Positions 18,531 through 46,435 of a stretch of 64,000 bases of DNA are shown piece after piece. The notes below the pieces were generated by a model, which was given only the letters and a program-made list of their open reading frames with translations, was not told where the DNA came from and did not search any database. Source of the stretch: Blastocystis sp. Blastoise (Eukaryota; Protista; Bigyra: Opalinata); contig JBBPEB010000006.1 of the NCBI GenBank assembly GCA_039096225.1, positions 1,316,665 to 1,380,664 on the forward strand. Direction: 5' to 3'. Position numbers and translations under genes: made by a program. The stretch's first letter is position 1; each line of letters opens with the position of its first letter.

Positions 18531-19426
18531 ATTCTTCCGTTCTTCGAACTGCAGAAGGGGGTATGCAAACCCCGCATAGAGTCTGCGCGACGCGCGCAGC
18601 CATAAGCGGGGAAGTCATCCCCCCTTTTTGTTCTCGACGGAAGAATTAATAACATTTCTGAAGTAAAATAACCATGGGAGTGTAGGGTAGTGTGTGTGTG
18701 TATTTATTTTTTCCCATGTTTATTTATTTTTAATTTATTTGTGTTCCGATTCCAACGTGAAACGTAAAGTGATCAAGGAGAAACTCATAGTAATCATAAA
18801 AGAAATAAAATACACAGTCCAACCCTCCCCTTTACAGGGAATATTCATGGAAAATGACTCCATCGTTGGTAAAGTGAGTAAAATAATCACGGGAACACAG
18901 AAAGAAATACGAAAAGAAGCACAGAATGTGCTAAATAAACACACACCCCGACCCTCCCTTTATATAGAGAAAAGATGAAATGGATGGTTCTATCTAAAAA
19001 GAAATAATAAAAATAATCACGGGAATATATAAAAATAAAAATGTATGTATAGTGATCAATAAATAATATAAAAAGTAATGATAATCATAAAAAAATTTAT
19101 ATAAAAAGAGTAAAGTGATCAAGGTATGTATTTATAGTGGGTGAAAGAAAAGCTGGTGGTGGTGTGGTCTTGTAAAAAGATGTACCCACCACCACGATTA
19201 TAACGAGAGACTTTTGGAAACAAGGGTGACCGTTATGGAAATAGGATGCGTCATCGTGAATTGTCCAATCAAATTGCTTAAAAATGTAAAAATGAGGGAT
19301 TTTGGAACACAAAAACACAATTATTATGGGGAAACTGGGGAAACTAATTATGTTCCAGTGGTTTTAGGTGGCGGGATGTATATCAATTTTCTAGAATATT
19401 CTAGAACATTCTCGAAACTTCTAGAA
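18531..19426 (+). repeat. Left terminal inverted repeat (896 bp)
   Basis: Reverse complement of 45539-46435. I noticed only about 3 substitutions and one 1-bp indel. ORFs 18694..18978 and 45988..46272 mirror each other. Confidence 0.97.
19389..19426. promoter_or_regulatory. Heat-shock-element-like array (8 alternating nGAAn/nTTCn units)
   Basis: TTCtaGAAtaTTCtaGAAcaTTCtcGAAacTTCtaGAA. Confidence 0.6.
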
Positions 19427-19473
19427 TAATAAATTGTATTATGCATTTTTTTTCTATTTTTATACTATTTATT

Positions 19474-19641
19474 ATGGATTCTCCAAAGCAATTTGCTCCA
19501 GATTATAAAGAAGGTAATTGGAAACCTTATGGAAATTTTGAAGTTGATGAATTAAGTGATAGTGATTCTGAAATGGATACTATTCAAACTGAAAGTGAGG
19601 ATGATTACGAAGATTATATCAAGAATTTTATTGATTTTTAA
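19474..19641 (+). CDS. Small acidic viral protein (55 aa, MDSPKQF...)
   Basis: ATG just downstream of the HSE array, virus-like codon usage, D/E-rich, followed by the 3' motif variant TTGTTTAGTT. Confidence 0.55.
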   Translation: MDSPKQFAPDYKEGNWKPYGNFEVDELSDSDSEMDTIQTESEDDYEDYIKNFIDF

Positions 19642-19715
19642 ATTAATTTTTATAAATAACAAAACAAATTGTTTAGTTTTTTAAAATAATAATAAATAAA
19701 ATAAATTAAAATTAA

Positions 19716-21206
19716 CTAATGTTTTCTACGTTTATTTCTTAATTTTTTATTTTTTGAAATACGTCTTTTTCTACGTAATCCATTACCTTCTTCGAGATCA
19801 TAAAATACCTCACCATCATCTTCATCAAATGATTGAAATTCATCATCTTCTTTTTTATTTCGTTTATTATTATTTTCAAGAGTTACATTTTCTACTGGAT
19901 TAGGAATCGGGGCTACAGGTGTATTATTTGGAGTGAATTTATTCGTTATTGCTTGAGACATTGGAACAATATCAGGTAAAGGAGCAGTAGGATCATTCAT
20001 AAGAGGAATTAAATTTGGAGGATTTGAATCTTCTATATTAATATTATGAATATTTTCTAGAGTTAGAGTATCAGGGGTAGATGAAGGAGTTGATATAACA
20101 TTATTATTTGTTTCTATTGGATTTTCTGTTTGTGGTATTTCTTCTTCTGGATTTTTACCATACCACCAATCAGAAAAACTATTAAATACGTTCTTTGTAC
20201 CACTAACAATAGAGTTTGCAACTTTTTTAACACCATTAACAATTGGTGTTCCTACATTTGTTGCAGTATTAACAACTTTATTAACAAATGTAGGGTTTTC
20301 TGCATAGGGAATATAATTTTTATGAAATGTTTTTGCTTGATCTTCTAAAGATTTAGTTTTGTTAAGTCTTTGTTCTTTAGTATCATTACCTGACATATGA
20401 GCAAATCTAAAATAGTTATCAGCTAATAATTTATTCTTTTTCTTAGCTTCATTATCATCAGTTAATTTCCAATTATCATATAAATTATTTCTATCACTTA
20501 CAAGTTTTCCTTTAATATCATTGAATCCTTCTTTTGGATCAACATTAATATCTCTCCACCAATTCTTGAGATCTTTGAATTTATTTGCACCATAATCAAC
20601 AGCATTACTTATTCCATGAGTGATATTATTAATACCTCCAGTTAATTTATCAGACACATTGTATACATCACTTACAGTGTGATAAATATTAGAAAATAAA
20701 TTACCACCTCTAGAATATAAATAACCATCACGATCTCTTTTAGTAAAATCAATTGCACTATCAATTGTACGAGGATTTAATAATCTTGAATATTTAGCAT
20801 AATCAGACATATGATTTTGTTTCATATAAGGTAAGACATAATCATGAGCATAAATGAGTTTTCTTGTAAAGTTCTTCGGAATTCTACCATCAGGTAATAA
20901 CCCAGATCCTTCATCTATTGGTTCACTTTCTTCTGATTCTTCTAAGGAACTTTGTATAATATCTTGTCTGGTTTCTGATAAATAGGAGAAAAATGGATTG
21001 GATGTTGCTCTATTGACCATATTACTTTCAATTTTCTTAACAGCATATAATGAATTTGGAGCAATAGAATAATTAATTGGATAACGTTCTTCTCCATCAG
21101 GAATAGATCCTGGAACAATATAATTTCGATATTCATGACCAGTAGCACGATGATTTACGCCTACTAATCCTTTATTTGAAACATTTAAACGAGCACTTTG
21201 TATCAT
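19716..21206 (-). CDS. Viral hypothetical protein, 496 aa; putative core/structural protein with GxG sites and a basic C-terminal tail
   Basis: Long intact ORF with EGSGL, SRGGN and EGNGL followed by RRKRRISKNKKLRNKRRKH; 3' motif at 19658-19667. Confidence 0.8.
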   Translation of the reverse strand: MIQSARLNVSNKGLVGVNHRATGHEYRNYIVPGSIPDGEERYPINYSIAPNSLYAVKKIESNMVNRATSNPFFSYLSETRQDIIQSSLEESEESEPIDEGSGLLPDGRIPKNFTRKLIYAHDYVLPYMKQNHMSDYAKYSRLLNPRTIDSAIDFTKRDRDGYLYSRGGNLFSNIYHTVSDVYNVSDKLTGGINNITHGISNAVDYGANKFKDLKNWWRDINVDPKEGFNDIKGKLVSDRNNLYDNWKLTDDNEAKKKNKLLADNYFRFAHMSGNDTKEQRLNKTKSLEDQAKTFHKNYIPYAENPTFVNKVVNTATNVGTPIVNGVKKVANSIVSGTKNVFNSFSDWWYGKNPEEEIPQTENPIETNNNVISTPSSTPDTLTLENIHNINIEDSNPPNLIPLMNDPTAPLPDIVPMSQAITNKFTPNNTPVAPIPNPVENVTLENNNKRNKKEDDEFQSFDEDDGEVFYDLEEGNGLRRKRRISKNKKLRNKRRKH

Positions 21207-21435
21207 TTTAAATTAATAAAACTAGGGTCACGCCGCAGGTCCAGTGCCTAACGGCCCCGGACCGCGGCTGCATGAAAATATGTGTGTTTAGTTTTTTAGT
21301 ATCCTTCATTATTTTTATATATTGTTTATTGTTTATTGTTTATTATTTATTGTTAATTATTTATTTATTATTAATTATTTATTATTTATTTATTATTATT
21401 TATTATTATTTATTATTAATCATTTATTATTTATT

Positions 21436-21503
21436 TCTTATACTCTACATGGAGAGTTATAATCAATAAATGATTGTAATCAGGTTCAATTCCTGATATA
21501 AGA
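21436..21503 (+). ncRNA. tRNA-like cloverleaf, copy 3 (inside the Helitron)
   Basis: Stems are TCTTATA/TATAAGA, CTCT-acatgg-AGAG, TTATAATCA/TGATTGTAA and TCAGG-TTCAATT-CCTGA. Confidence 0.6.
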
Positions 21504-21929
21504 ATCTATTATACTTTTTCAATAATATATAAAAATAAAGAAGAAATTATTTTAAATAAAGAACAACGTTTTGAGTTATATTCATTATAAAAAATTATTT
21601 TCTAAATCAATTTTGACATTATTAATAATTATACAACTGTTTAAAGCTTTTTTTGAGTTTTAAAGTCAATAATTTTAGAAATGAGTAACAATGTGAAGAA
21701 CTTTGAAGTATTTTTAATTCATAAAATTCATTTAAATAAGCATAATAAAATAATTTAAACTCATTTTAATAATTTTTAAAAGAATTTTGAAGTTTTAATC
21801 ATAACAAAGTCAACATTCATTTTCACTTTGACAACTAAAACATTATTTAAAAAGTTAATATTTTTATATTCGTCTCAAATAATGATTTTAATTATAAATA
21901 ACTCAAAATAGTAACTTTTAAAGAGACTT

Positions 21930-23310
21930 TACACATTCAAGATCCACTGTATCAAAATAATTTCTTTCAGTCTTTTGATATAGTATAGAGTTTATCATAC
22001 TATTTATTAAATAAAAGTAAATGTTTTGAATCTCTGTCTTAAAGACCCTTTTTGACACATTATGAAAAGTTGACACACTTAAACTCATTTTTAAATGCTA
22101 ATATTTACACACTTTACTTAATAATACCATAGCTACACATTGGTCATCACTTTAAAACATTTTATAAACCTTTTGCATTTGCTCATTTACTTCGACCAAA
22201 ATATTTTCGTCCCTTCTTTTGACATAATATAGAGTGTGTGGTCTAGTTATATGAAAGTGAGGGGGAATTTTGAATCTCGTCCTCTAAGTCAATCATTTTC
22301 ACATTTTTTAAAATTAAGACCCTTAGAGTTGATTTTTTACGTTAATTTTTCTACAGTGTTCCAAAAACACGATTTTGGATAAACTGAAGTAAAAATGTTT
22401 TTTCAATAACTCTCACAACCCTTTACACATCCACTCTCTAAAAATAGTTTTTGCTATATTTTTGATATGTTGTAGAGTGTCTCTTAGTGTATACTGAACA
22501 ATATCTCGTTTCTTAAAACTCTCATTTTATGACTCTCTTTGAACATATTTTTACTAATTGAAAGACTTAAACACATTTTTAAAAGCTAATATTTACATAG
22601 TAGACTTTATATGACTCTATAAGCACATTAGTCAACACTTTAGACTTTTTAAAGACACTTTACCATTTGCTCATACACTTTGATCAAAATATTTTCGTCC
22701 CTTCTTTTAACATAATATAGATCATACAGTCTAGTTTAATGAATAAACACTCTTATTTTGAATCTCGTCCTCTAAGTCACTCATTTTTACATTTTTTTAA
22801 ATTTAAGGCCCTTAGAGTTGATTTTTTGACTCAATTGTTCTACAGTGCACGAAATTCACGATTTTAAATAAACTGAAGTAAAAATAAATTTTAAATAATA
22901 GTCACAACACCTCACACATCCACTCTCTAAAAATTATTTTCTTTGAACTTTTGATATGTTGTAGAGCTACTACAGCTGTACACTAATTAATATCTCTAAA
23001 TTTTTTATTCATAGTCTAAGACTATGTTTTACACATTCTTTTGAATTTGACAACCTTAAACTATTTATTTAAAGCTCTTATTCATAAAATAGACTTAATA
23101 CATGATTCTATACACATATGCAAACCCTTTTACTTTTTAAGACACATTTTGTCATTTGGTCATACACTTTGACCATCATAATTTTGACTCTCCTTTTAAC
23201 ATAGAATAGAGTTGTAAGTCTAGTTTATTAAATAAAAGTCATTATATTGAATCTTATCCTCTAAGACCACTTAATTCACATTTTTCAAAATTGTCACTTT
23301 TAAACTCGTT
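21930..23310. repeat. Degenerate tandem repeat with ~244-bp monomer and ~488-bp dimer
   Basis: ATCCACT..TTTTGATAT..TAGAG recurs at ~21942, 22429 and 22918; TTGAyCA..TTTTCGTCCCTTCTTTT-like segments recur at ~22191, 22680 and 23168. Confidence 0.7.
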
Positions 23311-24004
23311 ATTTTAAGACTTTGTTTTAACTATAGTAGTTTGAGGACCTATCAATTACAATACTGTAATATTAGTCGATTATAAGAAGATCGAAGAAAA
23401 TATCGATCACTCAAAAATCGTCCTCAGGAGCTGAAAATCGCTACACCTAGGTTTTTGGACCTCCTGAATCAGAATATGATGTCAAAATAAGAATCTAAAT
23501 TTGACCGTTAAGGCCTCACGTGTTCAATATGAAAAAGTATTAAAAAATAGATAAATATAAAGAATAAACACGGATAACGTATATTGTGGGATTGAGAAAA
23601 AATCAAGTTTACCCCATGTTTATTTTCCAATTGTCTGGTCAACAATTTTTATCGGGGTCACCCCAAAGAGCCAATCAAAAACGACTCAAAAATCATGTTT
23701 TCTGTTCTTTTATTAATATCTTTTTAATTATAAATAACATCGCTTAACCAAATATACGGTGCACAACTACACGTTATATCCTATTGAACTGTGTTTCAAC
23801 CAAAAGTTAACTTCCCGTAAGTTTAGAGGAGTTGTGGGTACAAACTTGAGTATATAGTAGCCAATCAAATGAATTTTCCAAAAACTGACCAATGGGAATT
23901 TTTTTGCCTATTCTCATATATATAGTAATGATAATTATGAATTTTAAAACAAAACAAAAAAAAGAAATTATTTATATTATATAGTTAGTATATTAATAGT
24001 ATCA

Positions 24005-24802
24005 TTAATTATTATGAGTATTTTTTAAATAATCGTCAATATTCATTGATTTATCATTAGCTTCAACAAATAATGTTTTATTTTTGTAGAATATATTATT
24101 ATTTCCAAAAACATCACTATTGGTGCATTCAATAGGTCCATCAGTATACCATTTGAATTTATACTTTCCATAAGTGGCGTTATAATATGTTTTTTCGTCG
24201 GTATCTTGTTGTAAATTCATATCGAATTCAAATTTCTTTGGAGTATTATCATCTTCTTTATCTGGTTTCTTTTCAGTTTCAGGTTTAGTTTCAGGTTCTT
24301 TAGCTGGTTTCTTTTCGTGTTCAGGTTTCTTTTCAGGTTCTGGTTTGGGTTGTTCTTCAGTGAAATTAGAATTCATGGATTCTGGTTGTGGTTTCACTGT
24401 ATAGTCTTCATTAGGATTTCTTACAGTATGAATAAGTTTTTCATATTGATAGTTATTAGGATTACTAGCATCATACCATATCTTACTTGTAGTAGGAATA
24501 CCATAATTCGTTTGCCATTGAGATAACATGGATGTATATCTATTGGTATCACCATTAGCTTTAGCTGAATTCATAGTAGCTATAAACATATCTTCAGGTG
24601 ATTGACCATGATTTCTTAATGCTTGAACTGCCATTGAGCTATACATAGATCCTTGGGCATTAGGATCATGTGCTAATGGTTGTACAGGTTGTTCATCTTG
24701 ACAAATATATGAATTGGGTAACCATGGATCCCAAGATTGTTTTTTCTGATTTCTTGATAAAATATCATAGAGAGTTACACTATCTCCTAAATTACTTTGC
24801 AT
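24005..24802 (-). CDS. Viral hypothetical protein, 265 aa, with a KPE-rich linker
   Basis: Intact ORF containing KPEPEKKPEHEKKPAKEPETKPETEKKP; 3' motif at ~23947-23957. Confidence 0.8.
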   Translation of the reverse strand: MQSNLGDSVTLYDILSRNQKKQSWDPWLPNSYICQDEQPVQPLAHDPNAQGSMYSSMAVQALRNHGQSPEDMFIATMNSAKANGDTNRYTSMLSQWQTNYGIPTTSKIWYDASNPNNYQYEKLIHTVRNPNEDYTVKPQPESMNSNFTEEQPKPEPEKKPEHEKKPAKEPETKPETEKKPDKEDDNTPKKFEFDMNLQQDTDEKTYYNATYGKYKFKWYTDGPIECTNSDVFGNNNIFYKNKTLFVEANDKSMNIDDYLKNTHNN

Positions 24803-24878: not shown

Positions 24879-25916
24879 TTAATTTAAATGAAATTTTTTT
24901 AAGAAGAATTGAACAAGATTAATAATTAAATTAGTAGTAGTATCAAAGGATGTAGAGTTGACAAGAGCACCACCACAACGTTCAGCATTCTCTTTTGTAA
25001 CACCACTTCCACTAGGATTTTTAAAATAGTTATCAGCAGTTTCTTTACGTTTCTTATCATCATCAGTAGTAATCATATTATAAGCGAAATCAATAGGGAT
25101 ACCAAGAGAAGGATAATAGTATTTTAATGCATTCACTACAATAGGAACAATCGTTTTAATAGTTTTAATAGCAGTATTCGCAATAATAGAATGCTTTTGT
25201 TTTGGATCCATAGGATATTCTTTATCGATAACGACATTAACAATATCACGTACAGACACATGCTCATCATTTTTAGGTAATCGTTCTTTAATATCTTGTA
25301 ATTTCTTCTTATTAGACTTTACATTACTAGAACGAATAGCCTTCTTAGCAATAATTTTTATTTGAGGAGTTACAAATTTACTTGTTTTCTTTTCTTTTTC
25401 TCGGTGACTCCCATGTTCTTTACGATGTTTCTGATGCCTTCTATGTATACCTTGACCAAATATATCATCATAATTTTCATCTTCAAGATTTGCATTATTA
25501 TAATCTTTATCATCATCAGCCATCATTTTTCTTGTTATTCTCTTTGGTTGATAAGTATCATCATCGTTATATAATTCATCATCTCTATTAGCATCTTCAA
25601 TATGTTCTTCAAATTGTCTTTTCTTTTCTTCTTTTGCTTTTTCTTGACGTTTTTGTTCTTTACGTTTCTGATAATAATTATATCCAGCAAATGCTCCTAA
25701 TGTACCTAAAATAGGTAATGCAGTATAGACACCATTTTTAAAATCAGCCCAATCAGCATCTTTAGCTTGTTGTCTAACAATTTCTTCAAAACCAGTTCCT
25801 CCATATCTTACATAACGTTTATGATAAAGATCACGTCTATTTGATTTTGGTGGTGATCCTCCAAATAATCGTGGATCACAATTTTGTTTTAAATATCTTT
25901 TTGTAATTGAACTCAT
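24879..25916 (-). CDS. Viral hypothetical protein, 345 aa; putative single-pass membrane/core protein with GG/GxG sites
   Basis: Hydrophobic GVYTALPILGTLGAFAGY followed by a basic coiled coil; also LFGGS, RYGGT, FGQGI, SGSGV and RCGGA. Confidence 0.8.
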   Translation of the reverse strand: MSSITKRYLKQNCDPRLFGGSPPKSNRRDLYHKRYVRYGGTGFEEIVRQQAKDADWADFKNGVYTALPILGTLGAFAGYNYYQKRKEQKRQEKAKEEKKRQFEEHIEDANRDDELYNDDDTYQPKRITRKMMADDDKDYNNANLEDENYDDIFGQGIHRRHQKHRKEHGSHREKEKKTSKFVTPQIKIIAKKAIRSSNVKSNKKKLQDIKERLPKNDEHVSVRDIVNVVIDKEYPMDPKQKHSIIANTAIKTIKTIVPIVVNALKYYYPSLGIPIDFAYNMITTDDDKKRKETADNYFKNPSGSGVTKENAERCGGALVNSTSFDTTTNLIINLVQFFLKKFHLN

Positions 25917-25969: not shown

Positions 25970-27007
25970 TTAATGAAAAGAAGGATAACCAGAATAATGT
26001 TTTTTATTTAAATAAGGATTAAAAATGCGTCGTTGACTATCTTGTATGATTTGATCTTGTATGATTTGTAAGATGGATTCTTTAGGTTTATCTTTTTCAT
26101 CTCGTTCAATACCTTTCAATGAGACTTCTTCTTCAACAGGTAAAAACTTCTTCATTTTCTTTTCATATGTAGATATATGTTCATTAGGACGTTTAATACC
26201 ACTACCTGATACTTCACCTTGTTCTTCTCGTTTCTCTTTTTCACTATCTTCTTCTGTCCATTTCCTTTTCTTTACCATCTTATATACATTCTGTTTACTA
26301 CCACAATCAGGATTAGTCCATATTGTTAAATCATCACTACCTTGTTTTAACATAAAGAATTGATGTGGATCATTCATTAATTCTTCATCTGTAAGAATTT
26401 CATTTAGATTTGATGGCATAATCTTTAATTTATCTGGTAAGAATCCAGGATCACGTTTTAAGATTTGACTATTAATAAAGAAATGAGATACTTGACTTAA
26501 TATAGATTGATTCGTGACATCTGTATGACTTTGAAGACATATAATAGCATTCTGTTTATAATGACGACCTTTAGATAATATAGATACAATCAATTGTTTG
26601 GTTTGTCTAGATAATGGATAGATATCATCCAATACAATAAAATTATGTTCTGGTAATTTATATGTATTGACTAATTCATCAACAGTTTTAATCTTTTTAA
26701 ATTTATCATCTACAGAATCATACCATTTATAATCAATTCCAGCATGTTCACAAATATCTTGAAAGGATGTATAACATTCATTCTTATTGGATGCATCAGG
26801 ACAAATTACTGTGACTTGTTTATATTTATTTTTAAGATCCATAGAACATAAGAGGTTCACAGTTAAGAAAGATTTTCCTGAGAATGTTCTTGCAATAATC
26901 AATATGAATTTTGATTCATATGTTTTATGATGGGATTTTCCATATTTAAATTCTAAGACTCCACATCCTTTATGTGTTTCTTTTAATGGATTTATTTTAT
27001 TCACCAT
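25970..27007 (-). CDS. A32-like (FtsK/HerA) genome packaging ATPase
   Basis: Walker A variant ILIIARTFSGKS, Walker B FIVLDD, A32 motif SKGRHY, and sensor ICLQS. Confidence 0.92.
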   Translation of the reverse strand: MVNKINPLKETHKGCGVLEFKYGKSHHKTYESKFILIIARTFSGKSFLTVNLLCSMDLKNKYKQVTVICPDASNKNECYTSFQDICEHAGIDYKWYDSVDDKFKKIKTVDELVNTYKLPEHNFIVLDDIYPLSRQTKQLIVSILSKGRHYKQNAIICLQSHTDVTNQSILSQVSHFFINSQILKRDPGFLPDKLKIMPSNLNEILTDEELMNDPHQFFMLKQGSDDLTIWTNPDCGSKQNVYKMVKKRKWTEEDSEKEKREEQGEVSGSGIKRPNEHISTYEKKMKKFLPVEEEVSLKGIERDEKDKPKESILQIIQDQIIQDSQRRIFNPYLNKKHYSGYPSFH

Positions 27008-27076
27008 TTTATATGATTTTAATCAACAAAACAAAAAATTAATTAATGATAAGTTAATGATAAATATATGATTTTA

Positions 27077-27748: not shown

Positions 27749-27839
27749 TTTTTATTAAATAAATTAATTATGTATTGATAAACAAAACAATATTTATTAA
27801 ATTGTATAAATTGATAAAAGAAAATATTAGATAATTAAA

Positions 27840-29063: not shown

Positions 29064-29238
29064 TTTAATAATTATTGTTTATGTATTTTTTTAACAAAAT
29101 AAAAATAAAATAATAATAATATTTTATAATTATTAATTAATTTTAATTTTTATAACAAAACAAATGATTGTATTATAGAATAGAATAGAATTAATTAAAC
29201 AAGTTAACGTTAAGAATAGTAAGTAAGAAATATTAAAT

Positions 29239-35644: not shown

Positions 35645-38600
35645 TTAATTTGGTATAGCATATAAAGTATTATCTATTAAAATTCGTTTTGTTGATGACG
35701 TATTATGATATTGATCTTCACTATAAACAATTTCTTCTTTTTTAGATAAACAATTGGATAAACAGAATAAATCTGTATCTACACATTCATTATAAGTATT
35801 ATCAATCATTAAACCACAAATACCAATAGCATTCCCTCCCTTATAAAAATTTGAAGTATGTTTTCTATGAATATTCACAATATCTATAGAATTAAATGTA
35901 TCTTTACTACTTAAACAACCAAATAAAGCATTTGTAAATTTATCTAAATCTTTCTTAATCGTAAATTGATTATTATTATTCACTTTCTTATAACTATTAA
36001 AAATATCTTCAATAGTAACTACATTCAAATAATAAGGATCTATAGTAATATGGTTATCAACAAAAGATTTCAAATCATATCCTTCTGTACTACGATCAAA
36101 GAATCGTTTCTTACATTCACTTATATGATATTCATTATCTAATTCATGCATATCTAATTGCATACTAGAATAGAAATAATTACTTACTAGATAACTAAAG
36201 ATAATTGAACGATTCTGATAGAATTTATCGGATAGAGTATAATCCATTTCATAATGATTTGGTTTCAATCTCTTTTCTACTGTCTGTTTACGTTTCGGTA
36301 AATTATGATCTACATAATCTTCATATAAATTAGCATTACCAGGAGGGAAATAACGACAACATGAAGGTAAGAAACACACTCTTCTTTCAATAGGACCAGC
36401 ATTCACAGCTGTAGGTTGGATATTACTTGTCATAAATAAAGTACCCGTGAAATGAACTTTTGTAAATATATTACTGAATAATTTACGAGCACTAGCACCT
36501 TCTTTCTTTTCTGCTATTTCTTTAAAGACTTTAGAAGAGAATGGATTGAATGTTTTCTTTCTACCAGTAACATCTTCTTCTATTAATTCATTCATATAAT
36601 ACATAGTCTTATTAGACATATCTACAATCTTAGGAGCTATAGATGTTTCTTCTAAATTATCTGGATTTACTATAATACATTGATTACTACCTACAATACG
36701 AGAAATTAAATCAGTTGTTATTGTTTTACCATTACTACCTGTACTACCATATAATATATAAGAAACTGTTTTCTGAGTATTGACATAGAAAGCAGTGGTT
36801 AGGATACGTAACATAATACTTTCATATTTCTTATCGAATTCACAATATCTTGCAATATGTTGTTCAAATAATTGGATAATATCTTTCTGTTCATTATTAA
36901 TATTCCAACTTACATTAAATTCAGTATCAATTAATAAATCTTCAAACACCATATCTTCTTTATGATATGGTTGGATATAATATTGTCTAGGATCTTCTTC
37001 TGTTGATTCTTTTGGATATAAATAACCAAGTTGTGTATAGATAACACGTTCTTTATGAACCATATACGTATCTAAATATTCTTTATAAGATTTACCATAA
37101 GTCTTCAAATAACGATTCAACCATTCTTTATAATGATATTCATTAGTAACAGAAGCAGACATTATTTTATCAACTATTTTTTGATGTTGTTCATTCTCTT
37201 TGGAATATAATCTTGATAGTTTGAATTTCTCTACAATCGATTTCATAAATGTAGTTATTTTGGTTTCAAAGAAATTAATATCATAATTATTCTTACAACG
37301 TCTTAAGATATTATATTCATCAAATGTATATAAGATAAAATTATCTTTATCTAATATAATAGATACAATTTCATTAAATTCTAATAATTGAAATAACATA
37401 ACTAATGTTTGTGAATCTACAAGATTAAAGGATTGAATACATTCTAAAATAGACATAAATATGAAATCATTATCATCATCTTTATTAAATAATTTATTAT
37501 CCATTAATATCTTCAAAATATAATTATTCGATAAATGAGTAGGATCAACTTGTATATGATTCCATGTAGATTCAATTACATCATCACTTCGATCATGACC
37601 ATAACGTAATGAATAATTTTTAAATAATTCTAATCCTCTTGTTGTATTACAAATCTGTTTTGCTGCACAACATAATTTATACCAAGTATTATGGGATTCA
37701 AAATAATTCATATCTTCAATAGAACCAATCAATAATAAATATCGTTCTAATAAAGCTTCTTTAGATGCTGTAGTATCCAATATAGTATCTGTAGAAATCA
37801 ACATAGGAATATCTTTAATATCTTGTATAGAACATAATATAGTACGTGAACAATTATTTAATCTTGCATAATAACGTTTATAACGTGAATATTGTTTTAA
37901 TTTAGAAAAGATAATAGGATTAATAATATCACTTATAAGATCATCTTCATTCTTATAATTCAATAATGTTTTGAAATAATAATGTTCATCGATTTTGCCT
38001 TCTATTTTCTTCCATGATTTATTGGTATATTCTTCATATAATTTATAAGTAGATGGGGAATTATCTTTACTACAACCAAGAAACATACAACCATTATTCT
38101 TTCTGGGTTTACCAATAACATTATAATCAATGAATTCTTTTATATCTAAATTATTCATTTTAAATAAATCAACCAATTTGGTATTCAGAATCATACTATT
38201 ATATAAGAAAAATAAATAATCACCATTTACAAACCAATTTGTATATATATGAATTCCCCATGAATAATGTATTTCATTATGAACTGTCTTCTTATTCACT
38301 TCTTTCTTTGTATACACAAGCGAAATAAATTCTTGATTATAATAATGAATACAATGATTACACATTTCTTCTATAAATTCATGAATAAAAGAATCTGTTA
38401 GAAAAGAAAAATCATTTGATATTTGGTGATAATCTAAATCAAACCATAATCTTCTATAATTAGTTGATGTATTACAAGGAGTACAATCAATATAATGTAA
38501 TAATTCTTTTTGATTTTGGTAATTAGTAAATAGACTTTTATAAAATGGTAATGGATTTGGTATAATAATTTCACTATGATTATCTTTTGAGTTATCATGA

Positions 38601-38647
38601 TTAAAGGAACCAAAAGTATAAACAAAATGAATTTGTGAATTTTCCAT
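35645..38647 (-). CDS. D5-like primase-helicase (AEP primase + PriCT-2 + SF3 helicase), 1000 aa
   Basis: AEP motifs LWFDLDY and GIHIY; PriCT-2-like TWYKLCCA...FKNYS; Walker A YGSTGSNGKT, Walker B YYMNE, motif C FMTSN, and ERR finger. Confidence 0.9.
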   Translation of the reverse strand: MENSQIHFVYTFGSFNHDNSKDNHSEIIIPNPLPFYKSLFTNYQNQKELLHYIDCTPCNTSTNYRRLWFDLDYHQISNDFSFLTDSFIHEFIEEMCNHCIHYYNQEFISLVYTKKEVNKKTVHNEIHYSWGIHIYTNWFVNGDYLFFLYNSMILNTKLVDLFKMNNLDIKEFIDYNVIGKPRKNNGCMFLGCSKDNSPSTYKLYEEYTNKSWKKIEGKIDEHYYFKTLLNYKNEDDLISDIINPIIFSKLKQYSRYKRYYARLNNCSRTILCSIQDIKDIPMLISTDTILDTTASKEALLERYLLLIGSIEDMNYFESHNTWYKLCCAAKQICNTTRGLELFKNYSLRYGHDRSDDVIESTWNHIQVDPTHLSNNYILKILMDNKLFNKDDDNDFIFMSILECIQSFNLVDSQTLVMLFQLLEFNEIVSIILDKDNFILYTFDEYNILRRCKNNYDINFFETKITTFMKSIVEKFKLSRLYSKENEQHQKIVDKIMSASVTNEYHYKEWLNRYLKTYGKSYKEYLDTYMVHKERVIYTQLGYLYPKESTEEDPRQYYIQPYHKEDMVFEDLLIDTEFNVSWNINNEQKDIIQLFEQHIARYCEFDKKYESIMLRILTTAFYVNTQKTVSYILYGSTGSNGKTITTDLISRIVGSNQCIIVNPDNLEETSIAPKIVDMSNKTMYYMNELIEEDVTGRKKTFNPFSSKVFKEIAEKKEGASARKLFSNIFTKVHFTGTLFMTSNIQPTAVNAGPIERRVCFLPSCCRYFPPGNANLYEDYVDHNLPKRKQTVEKRLKPNHYEMDYTLSDKFYQNRSIIFSYLVSNYFYSSMQLDMHELDNEYHISECKKRFFDRSTEGYDLKSFVDNHITIDPYYLNVVTIEDIFNSYKKVNNNNQFTIKKDLDKFTNALFGCLSSKDTFNSIDIVNIHRKHTSNFYKGGNAIGICGLMIDNTYNECVDTDLFCLSNCLSKKEEIVYSEDQYHNTSSTKRILIDNTLYAIPN

Positions 38648-38733: not shown

Positions 38734-38863
38734 GAAGCTTCTAGAACCTTCTAGAACATTCAGGAACATTCTAGAACATTCTATAATAGTAAATATTACT
38801 TTATATTTTTAAATGTTCTAGAACCTTCGAGAACCTTCGAGAACCTTCTAGAACCTTCTAGAA
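38734..38863. promoter_or_regulatory. Two HSE-like arrays (10 + 10 units) upstream of the primase-helicase
   Basis: 38734-38781 and 38816-38863 show perfect 5-bp-phased alternation of GAA and TTC. Confidence 0.65.
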
Positions 38864-38973: not shown

Positions 38974-39597
38974 TTAAATTTCAATTGGTTCTTGACTATT
39001 AATATATGTACATGAATGAGGCCATCCATTTTTATCATATAAAATACCATCCCAGAAATACATTTGTTTTGAAGGATCTCTTTTAATCTTGTTAATACTC
39101 TTAGCATGAACAACTTCATAAGAATAAACTTTACCTTTTTCATCATAAAGAAATCCATCTTCCATATGGAATTTCATAATATCAAAATCATCATCTTTAG
39201 AATTCGAATGTTCTTTAGAATCTTCAGAACATAAAATAGTAGTTCTATCACTTTCTAAAAGATCTTCAGTATTGATAATATCTTGAATATCTTGTTCTTC
39301 ATTAAGTTGTTGAGTATAAATATCAGCAGCGAATTCTTCATAATCTTCAAGACCTTTAATAACCGCGTTTATACGTTTTAAAGCTGATCTATAGTTTTCG
39401 ACTTCGAAAGAAGCAAGACGTTCTTTAGATTTTGCAATACCCAATAGATTCTTTTCTCTATTCAATTGAGACTGATGTAAATCAATATCACGAAGAACAT
39501 TCTTATGAACTTCAACAGCCTTCTTAGAATTCTTTAGAAGTTCCATACGAACAGTTTGAAGACATTTACGGGAATCAGCAGAAAGATTAAATTGCAT
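38974..39597 (-). CDS. Viral hypothetical coiled-coil protein (~207 aa from ATG 39597)
   Basis: Intact ORF, 4-unit HSE at 39709-39726 upstream, 3' motif at 38905-38914. Confidence 0.75.
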   Translation of the reverse strand: MQFNLSADSRKCLQTVRMELLKNSKKAVEVHKNVLRDIDLHQSQLNREKNLLGIAKSKERLASFEVENYRSALKRINAVIKGLEDYEEFAADIYTQQLNEEQDIQDIINTEDLLESDRTTILCSEDSKEHSNSKDDDFDIMKFHMEDGFLYDEKGKVYSYEVVHAKSINKIKRDPSKQMYFWDGILYDKNGWPHSCTYINSQEPIEI

Positions 39598-39995: not shown

Positions 39996-40523
39996 ATGGA
40001 AATTCCTGATAGTCTTTCTGCCAGTTTATCCCCTTTCGGTCAAGCCATGATATCCCCCTTGTTGAATCCATTTGAAAATAGTGTTTCTGCAAATCCTATG
40101 GCTTTACCCAATGATAATGATTTCTGTTTTAATTCGCGTGACGAAATCATATTTGAAGATCCACCTCAAGAAATTCATCCAATCAATGATGTTTACGTAT
40201 CTAAAAATCCAGATAGATATCATTCGGTTAACAATCAACCAATACAATTTCAAGATCAAGTAAATACAAATCCTGATAAGCAAGCATTATTATTTACAAA
40301 TGAGGAGTTAACAAATATATCCAGTCAATTCGAATCTTTATTTCAAACTATGGAAACGGCTGATAATATATTAAATAGTATTTATTGTACTGTTGATCAT
40401 TTAAAAACAAAGATTGAAAGTCAGAAACAAGATTTGAAACAGATTCATGATGATTCTAAAGAAATTGTTTCATTATTATCCGAATATTCTATTCCTTCTA
40501 TGTCTGAAATATTTGATCATTAA
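39996..40523 (+). CDS. Viral hypothetical protein, 175 aa (disordered N-terminus, C-terminal coiled coil)
   Basis: Intact ORF; 3' motif at 40547-40556. Confidence 0.75.
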   Translation: MEIPDSLSASLSPFGQAMISPLLNPFENSVSANPMALPNDNDFCFNSRDEIIFEDPPQEIHPINDVYVSKNPDRYHSVNNQPIQFQDQVNTNPDKQALLFTNEELTNISSQFESLFQTMETADNILNSIYCTVDHLKTKIESQKQDLKQIHDDSKEIVSLLSEYSIPSMSEIFDH

Positions 40524-40722
40524 TTATTTTTATTTAATTAATTATTTTGTTTTGTTTATTTTTTTTTTAAATTAATTACACAAAGTTTAAATGGAGAATA
40601 GAATAGTTTCAAATAGAATTCTTGAATGGTCTAATGGATCTATTAAAGAAATATGTAACTACAGTATCATGGTTCGATTCCGTTAAAATGTTTCCATTAG
40701 ATTATTCAAGTGTTCTTTTTTT

Positions 40723-40770
40723 TTCTAGAACCTTCTCGAACATTCTAGAACCTTCTCGAACCTTCTGGAA
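40723..40770. promoter_or_regulatory. HSE-like array (10 units) upstream of the SSB-like gene
   Basis: TTCtaGAAccTTCtcGAAcaTTCtaGAAccTTCtcGAAccTTCtgGAA. Confidence 0.65.
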
Positions 40771-40846: not shown

Positions 40847-41440
40847 ATGTCTTCAACTGAATTTAAGAAACCTACTATTCTTGATACTTCTAACTTTAAT
40901 TTACAATGGGATGACACCAAAGAAAATGCTGTTCTTTTAAATAATAATCATCGTGTATGTATTTCTACTGATGCTACACCATGTTTATTTGGTTATATTG
41001 TTACACGTGATAAATGGACTTTAATAACGATTGAAGATGATAATCAAGTATTCTTAACTGCTTATAAAGAACTTTATCGTAAATTATGTGAATTATGTCC
41101 TGATGGTGATATTGTTAATTTTGTACGTATGGATAATGGTAAATATAAGATTACAATTAAAGTACCTATTAATGCATCGAAGAATGTTACTATTGATATT
41201 ACTGATAAAAGAGATAAGAAGATTAATATCGGTAAAGATCCTAAGTTAACTTACGAAGAAATACGTGAAAAGTATATTCCACCAAATACGTTATGTAAAG
41301 TATTATTTACAATACATGGTATTCATCGTTATAATAACAAGTATTATATTGGTTTATATGCACGTTCTATTAAAGTATTCGATAAATCTACGAAGAATAC
41401 TAACAGCAATGATACTATTATTGATTTAACTAAATTATAA
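40847..41440 (+). CDS. Probable OB-fold single-stranded DNA-binding protein (T7 gp2.5-like / NCLDV type)
   Basis: Size and the C-terminal pattern IPPNTLCKVLFTIHGIHRYNNKYYIGLYARSIKV fit this family; it lies near the helicase. Confidence 0.6.
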   Translation: MSSTEFKKPTILDTSNFNLQWDDTKENAVLLNNNHRVCISTDATPCLFGYIVTRDKWTLITIEDDNQVFLTAYKELYRKLCELCPDGDIVNFVRMDNGKYKITIKVPINASKNVTIDITDKRDKKINIGKDPKLTYEEIREKYIPPNTLCKVLFTIHGIHRYNNKYYIGLYARSIKVFDKSTKNTNSNDTIIDLTKL

Positions 41441-41515: not shown

Positions 41516-43144
41516 ATGCAAAGTTGTATCTTAGGAATGCCAAGTCCTGGTACTTTTGGTATGAATTTAATTTCAACTGGAAAAGAATATAGGCGATATA
41601 ATACACAACCATTACATAAAATGGATCAATATAATCCAATATTTCATGAAATAGGTCCAAATTCATCTATGCCTGTGTCTACTTTAGAAAGTAAAGAAAT
41701 ACATGATGGTAAAGAAGATGATTATGTAGATCGTTCTAAAACATTTGGTAAAGATGCTGTTCCACAAGGAAATGGTGCTTTAATTCGTGCTAGAGCAGCA
41801 GGTAAAGGTGTAATGAAAGCAGCTGGTCCAGAAGAAGATAAAATAGATGGTGAAGATCGTCAATATAAAGTATTAAATCCATGTAAACCAAGACGTAAAT
41901 CTGGTAGAGGAATTATTCCAAATAAATCAGAAATCAATAAATTAGAGAATAATCAAGGTTCTGGTATTGGTGATGCAATTAAAAATAAAGTAAAAGATAT
42001 GTATCAACGAAATGTATTAGATATAAGAGATGCTATTGTAGATAAAAAAGCTAATAGAAAAGCTCGTGATGCATTAGCTATTTTAACTCAATATGTTGGT
42101 GATGGTCATCATGATCTTGATGATGAATTCAAAAGATTCTATGAACATAAAATAAAACGTGGTGGAAAGATTCCTATATCTGTTGCTTCAGCAATTATGA
42201 ATGCAATTAAAAATAAGAAAATGATTAAGAATCCAAAATTAAGAAGAATGTTAAGACCCTCTATTATACCAAAATATATAGATTTAGATTCAGCTCAAAG
42301 TGGTGATGGTATATTAAGAGTAAAAAGAGGTGGTGGATTCTGGAGCGGATTAATGGATTATGCACCAGCTCTATTAGGTGTAGTTGATAAAGGTATGGAT
42401 TCTTTTGCTAAAGGTAGAAAAGCTTATTATGATACACATTTGGCACAACAATCAAGTGAATTAAATGATATGGAATTTGAAATGGAAAAATTAAAACGTC
42501 AACAAGCATTAAATGAAATGAAAAAGCAAATAGGTTCAGGAAATACAATAAATAAAATGTTTGAAGGATATTATGATGTAGCTGATGAAATGCAAGATGC
42601 TCTTGATGAAGATGATAGACTACATCCACAACCCGTTGTTCAACCTCCACCACCTCCACAACAACAAGTTGATCGACCTCCTCAATCTCAACCTCCTCAA
42701 CCTTATAAACCCATGTCTCGTGATGAACAAAGTTATTATTATAAGATTTATGGTTTCCCTCAAAATGATAAAGAAAAAGTCGATAGAAAATGGAAAGAAG
42801 ATGAAAGGGATAAACGAATAGCTGCAAGAAGAGCTAAACGTAGAGGTTATGGTGGTCGAGTTAAATTAAGTAAAGCAGAATTCTTAGAACGAATGAGAAG
42901 AGGAAAAGAAGCTAAAAAGAAAAGAGGTGGTGATTTGAATCCATTAGTATCATTTTATACAGATTTTATAATACCTGCAGGAGTGGCACGAAAAAAACGT
43001 AAAATCCAAGAGGCTGATTTAAAACAATTACAAATTATAAAACAGAAAAGAGATAATAATGAAACATTAAATGCAGGTGACGAATTGTTTTGGAAAAAAA
43101 AGAAATATATGTTATCAAAAAACTCAGGGGAGGGGATCTGGTAA
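41516..43144 (+). CDS. Basic core polyprotein candidate (542 aa) with ~11 GxG/GG putative protease sites
   Basis: K/R-rich; contains QGNGA, AGKGV, SGRGI, QGSGI, KRGGK, SGDGI, KRGGGF, IGSGN, GYGGR, KRGGD and SGEGI; overlaps the protease ORF. Confidence 0.75.
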   Translation: MQSCILGMPSPGTFGMNLISTGKEYRRYNTQPLHKMDQYNPIFHEIGPNSSMPVSTLESKEIHDGKEDDYVDRSKTFGKDAVPQGNGALIRARAAGKGVMKAAGPEEDKIDGEDRQYKVLNPCKPRRKSGRGIIPNKSEINKLENNQGSGIGDAIKNKVKDMYQRNVLDIRDAIVDKKANRKARDALAILTQYVGDGHHDLDDEFKRFYEHKIKRGGKIPISVASAIMNAIKNKKMIKNPKLRRMLRPSIIPKYIDLDSAQSGDGILRVKRGGGFWSGLMDYAPALLGVVDKGMDSFAKGRKAYYDTHLAQQSSELNDMEFEMEKLKRQQALNEMKKQIGSGNTINKMFEGYYDVADEMQDALDEDDRLHPQPVVQPPPPPQQQVDRPPQSQPPQPYKPMSRDEQSYYYKIYGFPQNDKEKVDRKWKEDERDKRIAARRAKRRGYGGRVKLSKAEFLERMRRGKEAKKKRGGDLNPLVSFYTDFIIPAGVARKKRKIQEADLKQLQIIKQKRDNNETLNAGDELFWKKKKYMLSKNSGEGIW

Positions 43145-43710: not shown

Positions 43711-43796
43711 AACATTCTAGAATATTCTAGAATCTTTAATTTATTATATTAATATTTTGTATAATTAATTTGTTTTGTTTATTATTTAATACTATA

Positions 43797-43952
43797 ATGA
43801 CAAAGAAACGATTTGGCAATTACTACTTAGATCGTAGTGCAGAAACTTTAGAGAATGTAAATGAAATACTGTCAGTTATTGAAATTGTTCTTATTATTAT
43901 ATATATTTTACTTTACTTTTATATGTCCAAGAAACGTTCTAGAACATTCTAG
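43797..43952 (+). CDS. Small single-pass membrane protein (51 aa)
   Basis: ATG at 43797; ILSVIEIVLIIIYILLYFYM followed by SKKR; HSE upstream and 3' motif downstream. Confidence 0.5.
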   Translation: MTKKRFGNYYLDRSAETLENVNEILSVIEIVLIIIYILLYFYMSKKRSRTF

Positions 43953-44054
43953 AACATTCATTTTGAACTGGCTCTATTTGTAGAATCTTTAATTTATTAT
44001 ATTAGTGTTTTGTATAATTAATTTGTTTTGTTTAATCATTGGTTAATTTAAATA

Positions 44055-44429
44055 ATGAACAAGAAATATCTTAGTTATTCTTATTTTTGTCGTGTGATGA
44101 AGAATCTAAAAGAAGAAGGAATTAAATCTAAAAAGAATGAAATAGCAAATCTATTAGAACAATTTTTAAATAACAATAACAGCAAAAATCTTAGTGATTT
44201 GCAATTGAGTTACTGTAGAAACATGTTACTTTATATAGATGATCCTGTGATTCATCAACGTCTTGAAATGCTATTGGATAAACAATATATGAAGAATGAG
44301 AATCAATATCAAGATGATAAGAATCTTATTCAACCCAATAATATGTTTATGCCAACTATGAAAAGTAATCAACAACAAAATCAATATCAAAATAATAATA
44401 ATAATCTATCTTTCTTACCTTTCAATTAA
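44055..44429 (+). CDS. Viral hypothetical protein, 124 aa (N/Q-rich tail)
   Basis: Intact ORF, HSE at 43937-43959, 3' motif variant at 44453-44462. Confidence 0.65.
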   Translation: MNKKYLSYSYFCRVMKNLKEEGIKSKKNEIANLLEQFLNNNNSKNLSDLQLSYCRNMLLYIDDPVIHQRLEMLLDKQYMKNENQYQDDKNLIQPNNMFMPTMKSNQQQNQYQNNNNNLSFLPFN

Positions 44430-44504
44430 TTTTTATATCCTTTTATTACTAGTTGTTTAGTTATATTCAAAATTTAAAAACAAAACAAACATAAAAACAT
44501 AAAA

Positions 44505-45440
44505 TTATTCAATTAATTTTTTAAATAAATTATTATTTTCTAAAGATACATAAGAATTAATATGTGTATAATCATTATGACATAAAGCAGAAGCAGAATT
44601 TTCTATATCTTGGAATGTATTGGTTGTAGTTGTAGCATATAATTTTCTTAATGCATTAATGGTTAATTTTGGATGGATTTGTTTTAAATGTTTATTCACA
44701 AACCAATCAAATGCTTTAGTAGTAAATCCAGTTCTAACAGAAGATTCAAATATAAATTTACGATTTGGATTTCTTTTTAAGAGTAATTCTAGATCTTCAA
44801 TCAATTCTTTTGGTGCATCTAATTGAATTGTAGAGTATTTACCAGCAGTTTTATAATCATTTAATAGAATAGAACCAGTATGTTTCTCTTTATCATAAAC
44901 AATATAATTCTTATGAATAGCTGGATCAATAGTATCTTCTGGAGTTAGAATGAATAATTGAGCATAATCAGCACGAGCAGGAGGAAGATAGGAGTAAAAA
45001 TCTAATATTAATCGTAATGGGTTATAATTTTCTAATTTATCGTGATATTCATGTAAATATGGAGTCGTAATACCATCTTTAATAAGATCTTGAATCAAAG
45101 TACGTTTCTTATTATCCAGATATTTTTCATACATAGAATTGATAATCACATAAAATTCACACCATTTATTTAAAATACCTTCTTTATTTAATGAAGAAAC
45201 ATTACGTATAATAAATAAAATCAATTCACATAACGATTTCATTGGACTAATTTTGATTTTACGTTCATTTACCATATAATCCATGAATGAATAAGGATTC
45301 TTTAAGAATTCTGAGAACTTTTTAAATGGTAATGGGAAAATATATAAATTGAAATAATTGGTTAAACGTTTTTTCCAAATATCAGAATAATTTGAATTCT
45401 GTATAACCAAAAGATACTTGTCATAATTCGTATTTTTCAT
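44505..45440 (-). CDS. Tyrosine recombinase 2 (~311 aa from ATG 45440)
   Basis: LPPARADY (R), LNDYKTAGKY (K), FIF, INALRKLYAT (R) and LCHNDYTHINSY (H...Y), the pattern of PLV/virophage/NCLDV-type tyrosine recombinases. Confidence 0.85.
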   Translation of the reverse strand: MKNTNYDKYLLVIQNSNYSDIWKKRLTNYFNLYIFPLPFKKFSEFLKNPYSFMDYMVNERKIKISPMKSLCELILFIIRNVSSLNKEGILNKWCEFYVIINSMYEKYLDNKKRTLIQDLIKDGITTPYLHEYHDKLENYNPLRLILDFYSYLPPARADYAQLFILTPEDTIDPAIHKNYIVYDKEKHTGSILLNDYKTAGKYSTIQLDAPKELIEDLELLLKRNPNRKFIFESSVRTGFTTKAFDWFVNKHLKQIHPKLTINALRKLYATTTTNTFQDIENSASALCHNDYTHINSYVSLENNNLFKKLIE

Positions 45441-45528
45441 TGTTTTTCTCAAGTAGAATCTTTAAAACTTCTATTTTGAAAAGAATAATACATAAGAAAA
45501 TCAAAATAAAATATCTAAGATTCTCATG

Positions 45529-45576
45529 TTCTCGAATGTTCTAGAAGTTTCGAGAATGTTCTAGAATATTCTAGAA
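45529..45576. promoter_or_regulatory. HSE-like array (10 units) upstream of tyrosine recombinase 2
   Basis: Alternating TTC/GAA at 5-bp phase, ~90 nt upstream of ATG 45440. Confidence 0.65.
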
Positions 45577-46435
45577 AATTGATATACATGCCGCCACCTA
45601 AAACCACTGGAACATAATTAGTTTCCCCAGTTTCCCCATAATAATTGTGTTTTTGTGTTCCAAAATCCCTCATTTTTACATTTTTAAGCAATTTGATTGG
45701 ACAATTCACGATGACGCATCCTATTTCCATAACGGTCACCCTTGTTTCCAAAAGTCTCTCGTTATAATCGTGGTGGTGGGTACATCTTTTTACAAGACCA
45801 CACCACCACCAGCTTTTCTTTCACCCACTATAAATACATACCTTGATCACTTTACTCTTTTTATATAAATTTTTTTATGATTATCATTACTTTTTATATT
45901 ATTTATTGATCACTATACATACATTTTTATTTTTATATATTCCCGTGATTATTTTTATTATTTCTTTTTTAGATAGAACCATCCATTTCATCTTTTCTCT
46001 ATATAAAGGGAGGGTCGGGGTGTGTGTTTATTTAGCACATTCTGTGCTTCTTTTCGTATTTCTTTCTGTATTCCCGTGATTATTTTACTCACTTTACCAA
46101 CGATGGAGTCATTTTCCATGAATATTTCCTGTAAAGGGGAGGGTTGGACTGTGTATTTTATTTCTTTTATGATTACTATGAGTTTCTCCTTGATCACTTT
46201 ACGTTTCACGTTGGAATCGGAACACAAATAAATTAAAAATAAATAAACATGGGAAAAAATAAATACACACACACACTACCCTACACTCCCATGGTTATTT
46301 TACTTCAGAAATGTTATTAATTCTTCCGTCGAGAACAAAAAGGGGGGATGACTTCCCCGCTTATGGCTGCGCGCGTCGCGCAGACTCTATGCGGGGTTTG
46401 CATACCCCCTTCTGCAGTTCGAAGAACGGAAGAAT
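45539..46435 (-). repeat. Right terminal inverted repeat (897 bp)
   Basis: Reverse complement of 18531-19426. Confidence 0.97.

Follow-up and report, generated by a model that had tools for sequence, protein, structure and literature searches.

A multi-copy, intact-looking candidate Polinton-like provirus with paired capsid and recombinase genes in Blastocystis sp. Blastoise

The 64-kb window from Blastocystis sp. Blastoise analysed here (i.e. the whole stretch of DNA under study) contains an endogenous virus element of 27,905 bp (27.9 kb) at positions 18531-46435. It is bounded by terminal inverted repeats (TIRs), the aligned arms of which differ by three substitutions and one single-base indel, and the composition of the sequence shifts abruptly at both TIR ends: GC content is 26.8% in the element versus 23.3% and 19.2% in the flanks, CpG dinucleotides number 11.5 per kb versus 5.7 and 4.7, and (TA)6+ runs are absent from the element versus 14 and 36 in the flanks. 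The element contains 19 ATG-initiated open reading frames (ORFs) of at least 80 amino acids (aa), comprising 18 non-overlapping ones, which span 74% of its length, and one 100-aa ORF lying antisense within the ATPase gene; two further small ORFs, of 55 and 51 aa, are plausible. The initial annotation of this DNA had given exactly these coordinates, about four differences between the TIRs and some 19 uninterrupted ORFs, all in agreement with our analysis. The features most relevant to the nature of the element, including two genes for major capsid proteins (MCPs), are the following.

18531-19426, plus strand: left TIR, 896 bp
45539-46435, minus strand: right TIR, 897 bp
18531-18647, plus strand: terminal imperfect palindrome of 117 nt, a long GC-rich hairpin with a 10-bp closing stem exactly at the element end
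46319-46435, minus strand: right-end copy of the hairpin, identical in sequence to the left end
25970-27007, minus strand: packaging ATPase of the A32/FtsK type, 345 aa (motifs and PHROG match)
27077-27748, minus strand: 223-aa ORF within the capsid block, no profile match
27840-29063, minus strand: MCP2, 407 aa, paralogue of MCP1 by homology
29239-30711, minus strand: MCP1, 490 aa, double jelly-roll (DJR) major capsid protein by predicted fold
30806-33244, plus strand: 812-aa ORF, variable between copies, four members in its 90% cluster
33804-35600, plus strand: tyrosine recombinase 1, 598 aa, no heat-shock array upstream
35645-38647, minus strand: fusion of an AEP-type primase and an SF3 helicase, 1000 aa
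43177-43710, plus strand: 177-aa protease-like ORF, by motif order only (positions 107, 123, 149 and 158)
44505-45440, minus strand: tyrosine recombinase 2, 311 aa, adjoining the right TIR, paralogue of recombinase 1

A structure prediction, which the initial annotation had called for, was carried out for MCP1. The AlphaFold2 model, folded with 13 relatives, has a pLDDT (predicted local distance difference test) score of 75 and in the VIA comparison matches the capsid proteins of faustovirus (Z 19.9, root-mean-square deviation (rmsd) 4.8, 353 aligned), Sputnik (Z 18.4, rmsd 3.9, 356 aligned) and mavirus (Z 17.2, rmsd 4.4, 349 aligned), with Z values of 18.5 to the chain from Paramecium bursaria chlorella virus 1 and 17.9 to that from African swine fever virus; unrelated folds score about 7 or less. 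The top match in BFVD is A0A8S5L5M3, a 420-aa protein labelled “MELD virus sp.” (E 7e-16, the next match having 1e-9; TM-scores 0.58/0.67; 12% identity). As judged from this model, MCP1 is a double jelly-roll protein. MCP2 is 28% identical to MCP1 (E 3e-39), and its neighbours in the ESM Atlas are DJR/Capsid_N families at 0.96-0.97. The Pfam families of virophage MCPs match neither MCP1 nor MCP2 nor any of six relatives, and a search of 1.84 billion representative proteins with the MCP1 profile returned 11 matches, all of them MCP1- or MCP2-type members, or fragments, of the same family. Because the profile recovers only its own family, the capsid lineage looks undescribed. A within-family MCP tree of 16 sequences has long branches, with the MCP2 clade supported at 100/100 and the metagenomic sequences forming a single group at 66/98. 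Both MCP types are retained in a second family at 48-49% identity, and relatives at 44-49% identity retain the capsid core, with 75 invariant columns. The 223-aa ORF is presumably a minor capsid (penton) protein, given its position and penton-like motifs, with no match from any tool; the 812-aa ORF has a weak local match to it (E 0.045) and is possibly a second, extended penton or spike.

Profile libraries (Pfam, PHROGs and NCBIfam) barely detect the proteins of the element, and the primase-helicase, the ATPase and both recombinases were identified from motifs together with weak profile matches. In the ATPase, Walker A lies at residues 39-46, Walker B at 124-128 and the GRH and Q motifs at 146-159, the pattern of the A32 family; the profile matches are PHROG 2666 (E 1.2e-10, labelled terminase large subunit) and Pfam FtsK (E 0.049). 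The primase-helicase has D70, D72, H133, D174, K641, E687, N742 and R756 invariant in all seven sequences aligned, its profile matches (PHROG primase, E 2e-9; TIGR01613, E 9e-9) covering only the helicase part and the AEP part being recognised by motifs. Both recombinases retain the R-K-R-H-Y residues. Those of recombinase 1 (R200, K239, R318, H358 and Y367) are invariant in 14 of 14 aligned sequences, and its ESM Atlas neighbours stand at 0.96-0.98, one of the clusters being 16% Phage_integrase. Recombinase 2 has its motifs at 155, 194, 263 and 287, a Pfam Phage_integrase match with E 0.084, and an alignment to the recombinase 1 profile over 272 columns (26% identity, E 2e-4, probability 44%). 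Among the matches listed, the recombinase motifs are intact in 13 of 14 and nine of nine named copies and in 117 of 119 metagenomic matches. The 177-aa protease-like ORF was recognised by a motif order of the adenain type: the His is present, a Ser occupies the usual Asp position, and the Cys-Gly motif is altered. Searches against PDB sequences gave nothing useful for MCP1, the primase-helicase, the ATPase, both recombinases, the protease-like protein or the 197-aa ORF listed further below.

Neither pPolB nor an rve integrase was matched by any of 20 ORFs in Pfam and PHROGs or by any of 18 in NCBIfam, and the same three libraries identify no DNA or RNA polymerase among the ORFs, nor any HUH endonuclease, VLTF2/3 or Mriya48; at least eight ORFs have no assigned role. 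A pPolB gene hidden in the non-coding gap was rejected, there being no stop-free stretch of more than 85 aa in 21207-24004. The gene set of the initial annotation is thus retained as regards the primase-helicase, the two recombinases, the two MCPs and the lack of pPolB and rve, whereas its protease is reduced to an atypical motif.

We counted the copies of the element, as the initial annotation had also recommended, from named protein accessions sorted by gene order. In Blastocystis sp. Blastoise there are at least 20 syntenic runs of four or more genes, 19 of them with MCP1, on at least 12 contigs, as told apart by length, and in both orientations. Identity to the copy in the window is 98.5-99.4% for the primase-helicase (n=14), 99.0-99.7% for recombinase 2 (n=9), 89-99.4% for MCP1 (n=14) and 93.6-99.8% for MCP2 (n=8), so the copies are about 1% apart in replication proteins and up to 11% in MCP1, where the differences cluster in a few segments, chiefly residues 425-475. 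In most named copies the genes for both MCPs, the ATPase and the penton-like protein have kept their full length. The insertion is accordingly, to judge by these sequences, a young, intact-looking element that has recently multiplied, as had been proposed from the single copy. The same organism carries two more distant families of the same virus group, with at least four loci (three with adjacent MCP1 and MCP2) and at least three loci, the MCP1 proteins of which are 35-49% identical (P0006, P0010, P0012, P0014, P0030, P0096 and P0097). Several copies of the element lie next to each other by gene order. One pair is inverted and meets at the recombinase-2 ends, another is a direct tandem, and in a third case a partial copy in inverted orientation comes after a full one; such arrangements may mark insertion hot spots or integrated concatemers. 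For the region 27000-30700, sequencing run X1 yielded nine short contigs at a depth of 2-4, seven of them at 95% likeness or more, which are uninformative on expression, particles and junctions, and runs X2 and X3 yielded no contigs.

The terminal hairpins are far more stable when folded as DNA than expected from their composition, the left one having z -5.6 and the right one z -7.9, with none of 200 shuffles equally stable in either case. No target-site duplication was found at the element ends, save for a trivial 2-bp AT with the ends shifted inward by two bases, and a duplication of the Maverick type was rejected on this ground. An unfolded hairpin at each junction would be the expected product of a nicked hairpin end joined to host DNA; a circular intermediate may also have been involved.

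Regulatory motifs are distributed non-randomly along the element. Clustered TTCTAGAA words number 20 versus 1, and there are six arrays of five to 11 alternating GAA/TTC units in the element, none in 36 kb of flank and none in 60 shuffles. The nGAAn consensus of heat-shock elements is well established, and the arrays, listed below without strand, are likely heat-shock elements.

19389-19426: eight perfect units, 48 nt before the 55-aa ORF
38734-38863: two arrays of ten perfect units each, 87 and 169 nt before the primase-helicase gene
40713-40770: 11 units, 77 nt before the 197-aa ORF
43937-43959: five units, upstream of the 124-aa ORF
45529-45576: ten units, 89 nt upstream of recombinase 2

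These putative sites for a host factor, through which host stress would switch the element on, thus precede the primase-helicase, the 197-aa ORF, recombinase 2 and two small ORFs, at distances of 48-169 nt; no array of five or more units lies before the capsid block, the ATPase, recombinase 1 or the protease-like gene. The second motif, TGTTT(T)GTT, occurs in sixteen copies between 19658 and 44491, on the sense strand and all intergenic. It lies 14-77 nt past the stop codon in 15 of the 18 ORFs (the exceptions being recombinase 1 and the 542- and 124-aa ORFs) and never within an ORF, compared with a mean of 0.12 and a maximum of two of 18 in shuffled controls, and is likely a 3'-processing signal. 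The TGTTTTGTT motif was rejected as a promoter, as it follows stops including those of convergent and last genes. A poly(A) motif TGTTTGTT is known in Blastocystis ST7, the motif of the element being one T longer (PMC4159000, in the part available). Together, promoter and 3' motifs of host nuclear type point to a provirus that would be transcribed by the RNA polymerase II of the host and whose genes would fall into an early heat-shock class and a late structural class.

Relatives of the element come mainly from ENA/Logan assemblies, which account for nine of 14 matches of MCP1 (44-49% identity, in clusters of two to 343 members), five of seven of the primase-helicase (42-44%) and, among the 120 matches listed of 163, 119 of recombinase 1 (52-55%). 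The longest metagenomic contigs of these relatives, 24-27.5 kb, are near the length of the element, which fits either free genomes or collapsed multi-copy insertions; we infer a gut habitat for them from the host alone. No related locus was found in IMG/VR, JGI metagenomes, GTDB genomes or a phage collection. One 100-aa record (P0101), the C-terminal half of which matches the MCP end while the N-terminal half looks unrelated, is probably a chimeric contig.

The element agrees with a loose definition of Polinton-like viruses (PLVs) in having a DJR MCP, an A32-like ATPase and a TIR-bounded genome within 15-45 kb with a replicase and an integration gene, to which the 223- and 812-aa ORFs may add minor capsid candidates by position and motifs, with no profile match. 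It lacks the pPolB, and the rve integrase with a 5-6 bp target-site duplication, that define group-1 Maverick-Polintons, as well as the pPolB and integrase that are on record for the Blastocystis hominis MELD virus (PMC8502044, available part). With this virus it shares the host genus and capsid proteins unrecognisable by sequence, and the best BFVD match of MCP1, labelled “MELD virus sp.”, may or may not belong to it. Mriyaviruses and Trimcap PLVs also have more than one MCP gene; in the part of the source at hand (10.64898/2026.06.19.733378), the former are of 35-45 kb, with HUH/VLTF genes and without integration genes, unlike our 27.9-kb element with its two recombinases, and the latter have three highly divergent MCPs, compared with the two paralogues found here at 28% identity. 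Sputnik-type virophages (Maveriviricetes) resemble the element in size, DJR capsid, ATPase and a protease-like gene (PMC9952930, as far as available); they differ in that the element has no match to the Pfam virophage MCPs, two MCP genes and host-type promoters, and the Z values of the MCP1 fold to Sputnik and mavirus are close to those to capsids of nucleocytoplasmic large DNA viruses (NCLDVs).

The gene mix itself has precedents. The entomopoxvirus-associated AHEV_PLV2 and CBEV_PLV1 combine a protease, a primase-helicase and a tyrosine recombinase without pPolB or rve (10.1101/2023.10.16.562556, available part), and share with the element the TIRs, the A32-like ATPase and the D5-like type of primase-helicase; an action of the recombinase on the genome ends was proposed for them in the same source. 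Their protease is of the adenovirus type, to which the protease-like motif of the element may correspond. Compared by description, they differ in their insect/poxvirus setting, the one recombinase reported, and their phospholipase and mu-like genes, and no link to the element at the sequence level was found. Clusters with protease and recombinase are described in Gosseviruses, and helicase-primase with recombinase in five oomycete elements (PMC7805220, available part). Gosseviruses, which have stramenopile hosts, and group-2 Maverick-Polintons are likewise endogenous with TIRs, may have an AEP-SF3 protein and in some cases have a recombinase in place of rve; a cysteine protease is a core gene in them, and the element has for it a candidate ORF with a partial motif atypical at two positions. 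The element differs in its two MCPs, its two recombinases and the lack of a detected phospholipase. This separation is based on their descriptions rather than their MCP profiles; the MCP1 profile recovered no Gossevirus or group-2 proteins among the 1.84 billion representatives. In Halocafeteria elements, terminal palindromes accompany replicases other than pPolB, and hairpin priming was proposed (10.64898/2026.07.28.741278, available part). Those endogenous virophages and PLVs of subtype 4 have 52-nt palindromes by target-site duplications, and rve integrases, in contrast to the 117-nt imperfect hairpin, the lack of a real duplication and the exclusively tyrosine recombinases of the element. 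A 2023 survey (PMC10120064, in its available part) counted 285 MCP genes, which form a separate cluster, in Proteromonas lacertae, a gut-dwelling member of the sister genus of Blastocystis, and gave no MCP count for ten Blastocystis assemblies; the MCP1 profile did not recover the Proteromonas MCPs, which may be outside the library searched. A 2026 PLV framework describes swaps of replication modules and multiple MCPs as common, with no mention of Blastocystis or the gut in the portion at hand (10.64898/2026.06.19.733378), and a Blastocystis genome paper (PMC10690189) has, in its accessible part, no passage on endogenous viruses. Our literature search found no description of the element, subscription papers and supplements, which bear on the word “undescribed”, being incompletely covered. 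The initial suggestion of a new lineage defined by gene combination therefore survives in one respect: the combination was rejected as new, being already described in the above PLVs, Gosseviruses and oomycete elements, and what is likely new is the capsid lineage, in which the MCP and recombinase genes occur in pairs and regulation is of the host type. Among virophages, Sputnik likewise carries a primase-helicase and a recombinase. The further suggestion of the initial annotation, an element that could still function, is plausible.

We regard it as somewhat probable that the element is a recently multiplied, intact-looking Polinton-like provirus of Blastocystis, with a predicted DJR particle, transcription in the host nucleus and awakening by stress. 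The boundaries, TIRs, hairpin sequences, gene set, predicted capsid fold, conserved catalytic residues, copy number in named records and motif placement are direct observations, around which the following cycle can be proposed. The host heat-shock factor would bind the arrays and turn on the early genes (recombinase 2, the primase-helicase, the gene for a protein resembling a single-strand binding protein and small ORFs), the mRNAs being ended by host machinery at the TGTTTTGTT motif. Recombinase 2, early and beside the TIR, would then cut the 10-bp stem at each end to give a linear genome with fold-back hairpin ends. This genome would be copied from these ends by the primase-helicase, relying either on a primase-polymerase activity of its own or on a polymerase of the host, in place of protein priming by pPolB. 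The late block (two MCPs, pentons, ATPase, core proteins and the protease-like protein) would package the genome, and recombinase 1, encoded in the late block, would insert an incoming genome at a new site without target duplication.

Several points weigh against this scenario. The particle, the free genome and the transcript are all predicted, the element being known from its genes alone, and genes are shortened in some of the named copies, to 125 and 534 aa for recombinase 1 and to 255 aa for the ATPase. The assumed division of work between the recombinases derives only from gene position and promoters, and recombinase 1 might have a role like that of a telomere resolvase; heat-shock induction presupposes a host heat-shock factor, which is here presumed; and no DNA polymerase is encoded, leaving autonomy unproven. 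The protease-like ORF is without the usual catalytic motif and has no match among profiles or PDB sequences, and its single-sequence model (pLDDT 51), too poor for a fold test, gave no fold match. Finally, the downstream motif is not enriched in host genes of tortoise isolates (PMC10690189, available part), so the virus may come from a lineage that uses the motif, or the motif may be read otherwise, and it may not be read in this host.

A helper-dependent, virophage-like PLV, latent until a giant virus infects and then borrowing its replication or transcription machinery, seems to us unlikely. The absence of DNA and RNA polymerases among the ORFs and the MCP1 model, about equally close to Sputnik/mavirus and NCLDV capsids, would suit it, and so would the arrays, as infection itself can trigger a heat-shock response; yet promoters and 3' motifs are of the kind used in the host nucleus, and we know of no helper. 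Gezel and several Tetraselmis PLVs do rely on giant viruses (10.64898/2026.06.19.733378, available part), whereas no gene flux between gut egoviruses and Blastocystis is reported in the portion of the relevant study at hand (10.1101/2024.03.23.586382).

We consider it quite improbable that the element is a virus-derived transposon that makes particles no longer, its recombinases excising and reinserting it within one nucleus via a circle or a hairpin-ended linear form. Many near-identical copies, some of them adjacent, the atypical protease motif and an element known from genes alone are what such a transposon might leave, but most named copies have full-length genes for the two MCPs, the ATPase and the penton-like protein, the MCP1 differences are concentrated in few segments (mostly residues 425-475), and the capsid core, with its 75 invariant columns, persists in relatives at 44-49% identity. 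It is very improbable that the copies are assembly artefacts, with free viral DNA wrongly attached to contigs of the host, or that they arose by segmental duplication from a small number of older insertions. The flanks are of low complexity, the junctions are known from the assembly alone and several named copies are neighbours in gene order; yet the copies are about 1% apart in protein and as much as 11% in MCP1, they lie on at least 12 contigs in both orientations, and in the window the composition changes sharply at both TIR ends and the element includes a host tRNA-like repeat.

Blastocystis is among the commonest gut eukaryotes. A 2026 review (PMC12835684, in the part available) treats its viruses as unconfirmed, with old microscopy of 30-nm and up to 200-nm particles and in-silico reports that are uncertain. 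With a defined, multi-copy, intact-looking DNA provirus that has relatives in many public assemblies and a simple candidate trigger, cultures could be used to ask whether any DNA virus of Blastocystis is active and, as a second question, whether reactivation and replication of a PLV are possible in the absence of a giant virus; the element also brings in a capsid family that an IMG/VR-based PLV framework would miss. More doubtful is the broader proposition that the element is the type member of a family of gut DNA viruses, widespread and so far undescribed, which infect Blastocystis, replicate helper-free as hairpin-ended linear genomes, split excision and integration between two recombinases, and are induced by heat shock like a prophage. 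If it were true, cultured cells could serve as a source of particles, which could also be followed in gut metagenomes.

The remaining features of the element and its surroundings are as follows.

19474-19641, plus strand: 55-aa ORF
19716-21206, minus strand: 496-aa ORF with basic C-terminus, weak tape-measure PHROG matches and a 15-member cluster; likely a virion or core protein
21207-24004, no strand: non-coding region of 2.8 kb with about three degenerate 488-bp units and a host tRNA-like repeat at 21480
21228-21275, coding strand of the 496-aa ORF, just upstream of it: GC-rich stem-loop (z -4.0, 0 of 200 shuffles)
24005-24802, minus strand: 265-aa ORF
24879-25916, minus strand: 345-aa basic ORF with one hydrophobic segment
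33314-33736, plus strand: 140-aa ORF
38974-39597, minus strand: 207-aa ORF with a 4-unit array upstream
39996-40523, plus strand: 175-aa ORF with a 4-unit array upstream
40847-41440, plus strand: 197-aa ORF
41516-43144, plus strand: 542-aa basic ORF with Gly-Gly motifs
43797-43952: 51-aa ORF
44055-44429, plus strand: 124-aa ORF
11890, 15996, 21480, 46735, 46945 and 49485: six copies of a tRNA-like repeat with a B-box core

The 197-aa ORF is, by resemblance, possibly a single-strand binding protein, with no supporting profile or PDB match, and the 542-aa ORF may possibly be a core protein and protease substrate. In the non-coding region, where the longest stop-free stretch is at most 85 aa, the three tandem units (about 21900-23400) are 64-74% alike, lack an ORF and are a possible origin or regulatory region. 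Rfam gave zero matches across 18000-47500, including the stem-loop and this region. Among the tRNA-like repeats, one copy is a tRNA-Ile according to ARAGORN (15950-16020), one (21480) lies inside the non-coding region of the element and one about 300 nt off its right end. The insertion sits in gene-poor DNA, with long low-complexity tracts of strong purine/pyrimidine strand skew and no credible genes at 1000-8000 and 14000-16000. On the host side, a tyrosine-recombinase-like gene at 58061-60324 (minus strand) shows the R, K, HxxR and H..Y motifs by eye and is interrupted by a long (ATT)n tract; it has no Pfam recombinase match and may be Crypton-like. At the other edge of the window, an open frame at 2-634 (plus strand) encodes a SWIM zinc finger (Pfam E 1e-8) and is possibly part of a MULE-type transposase.

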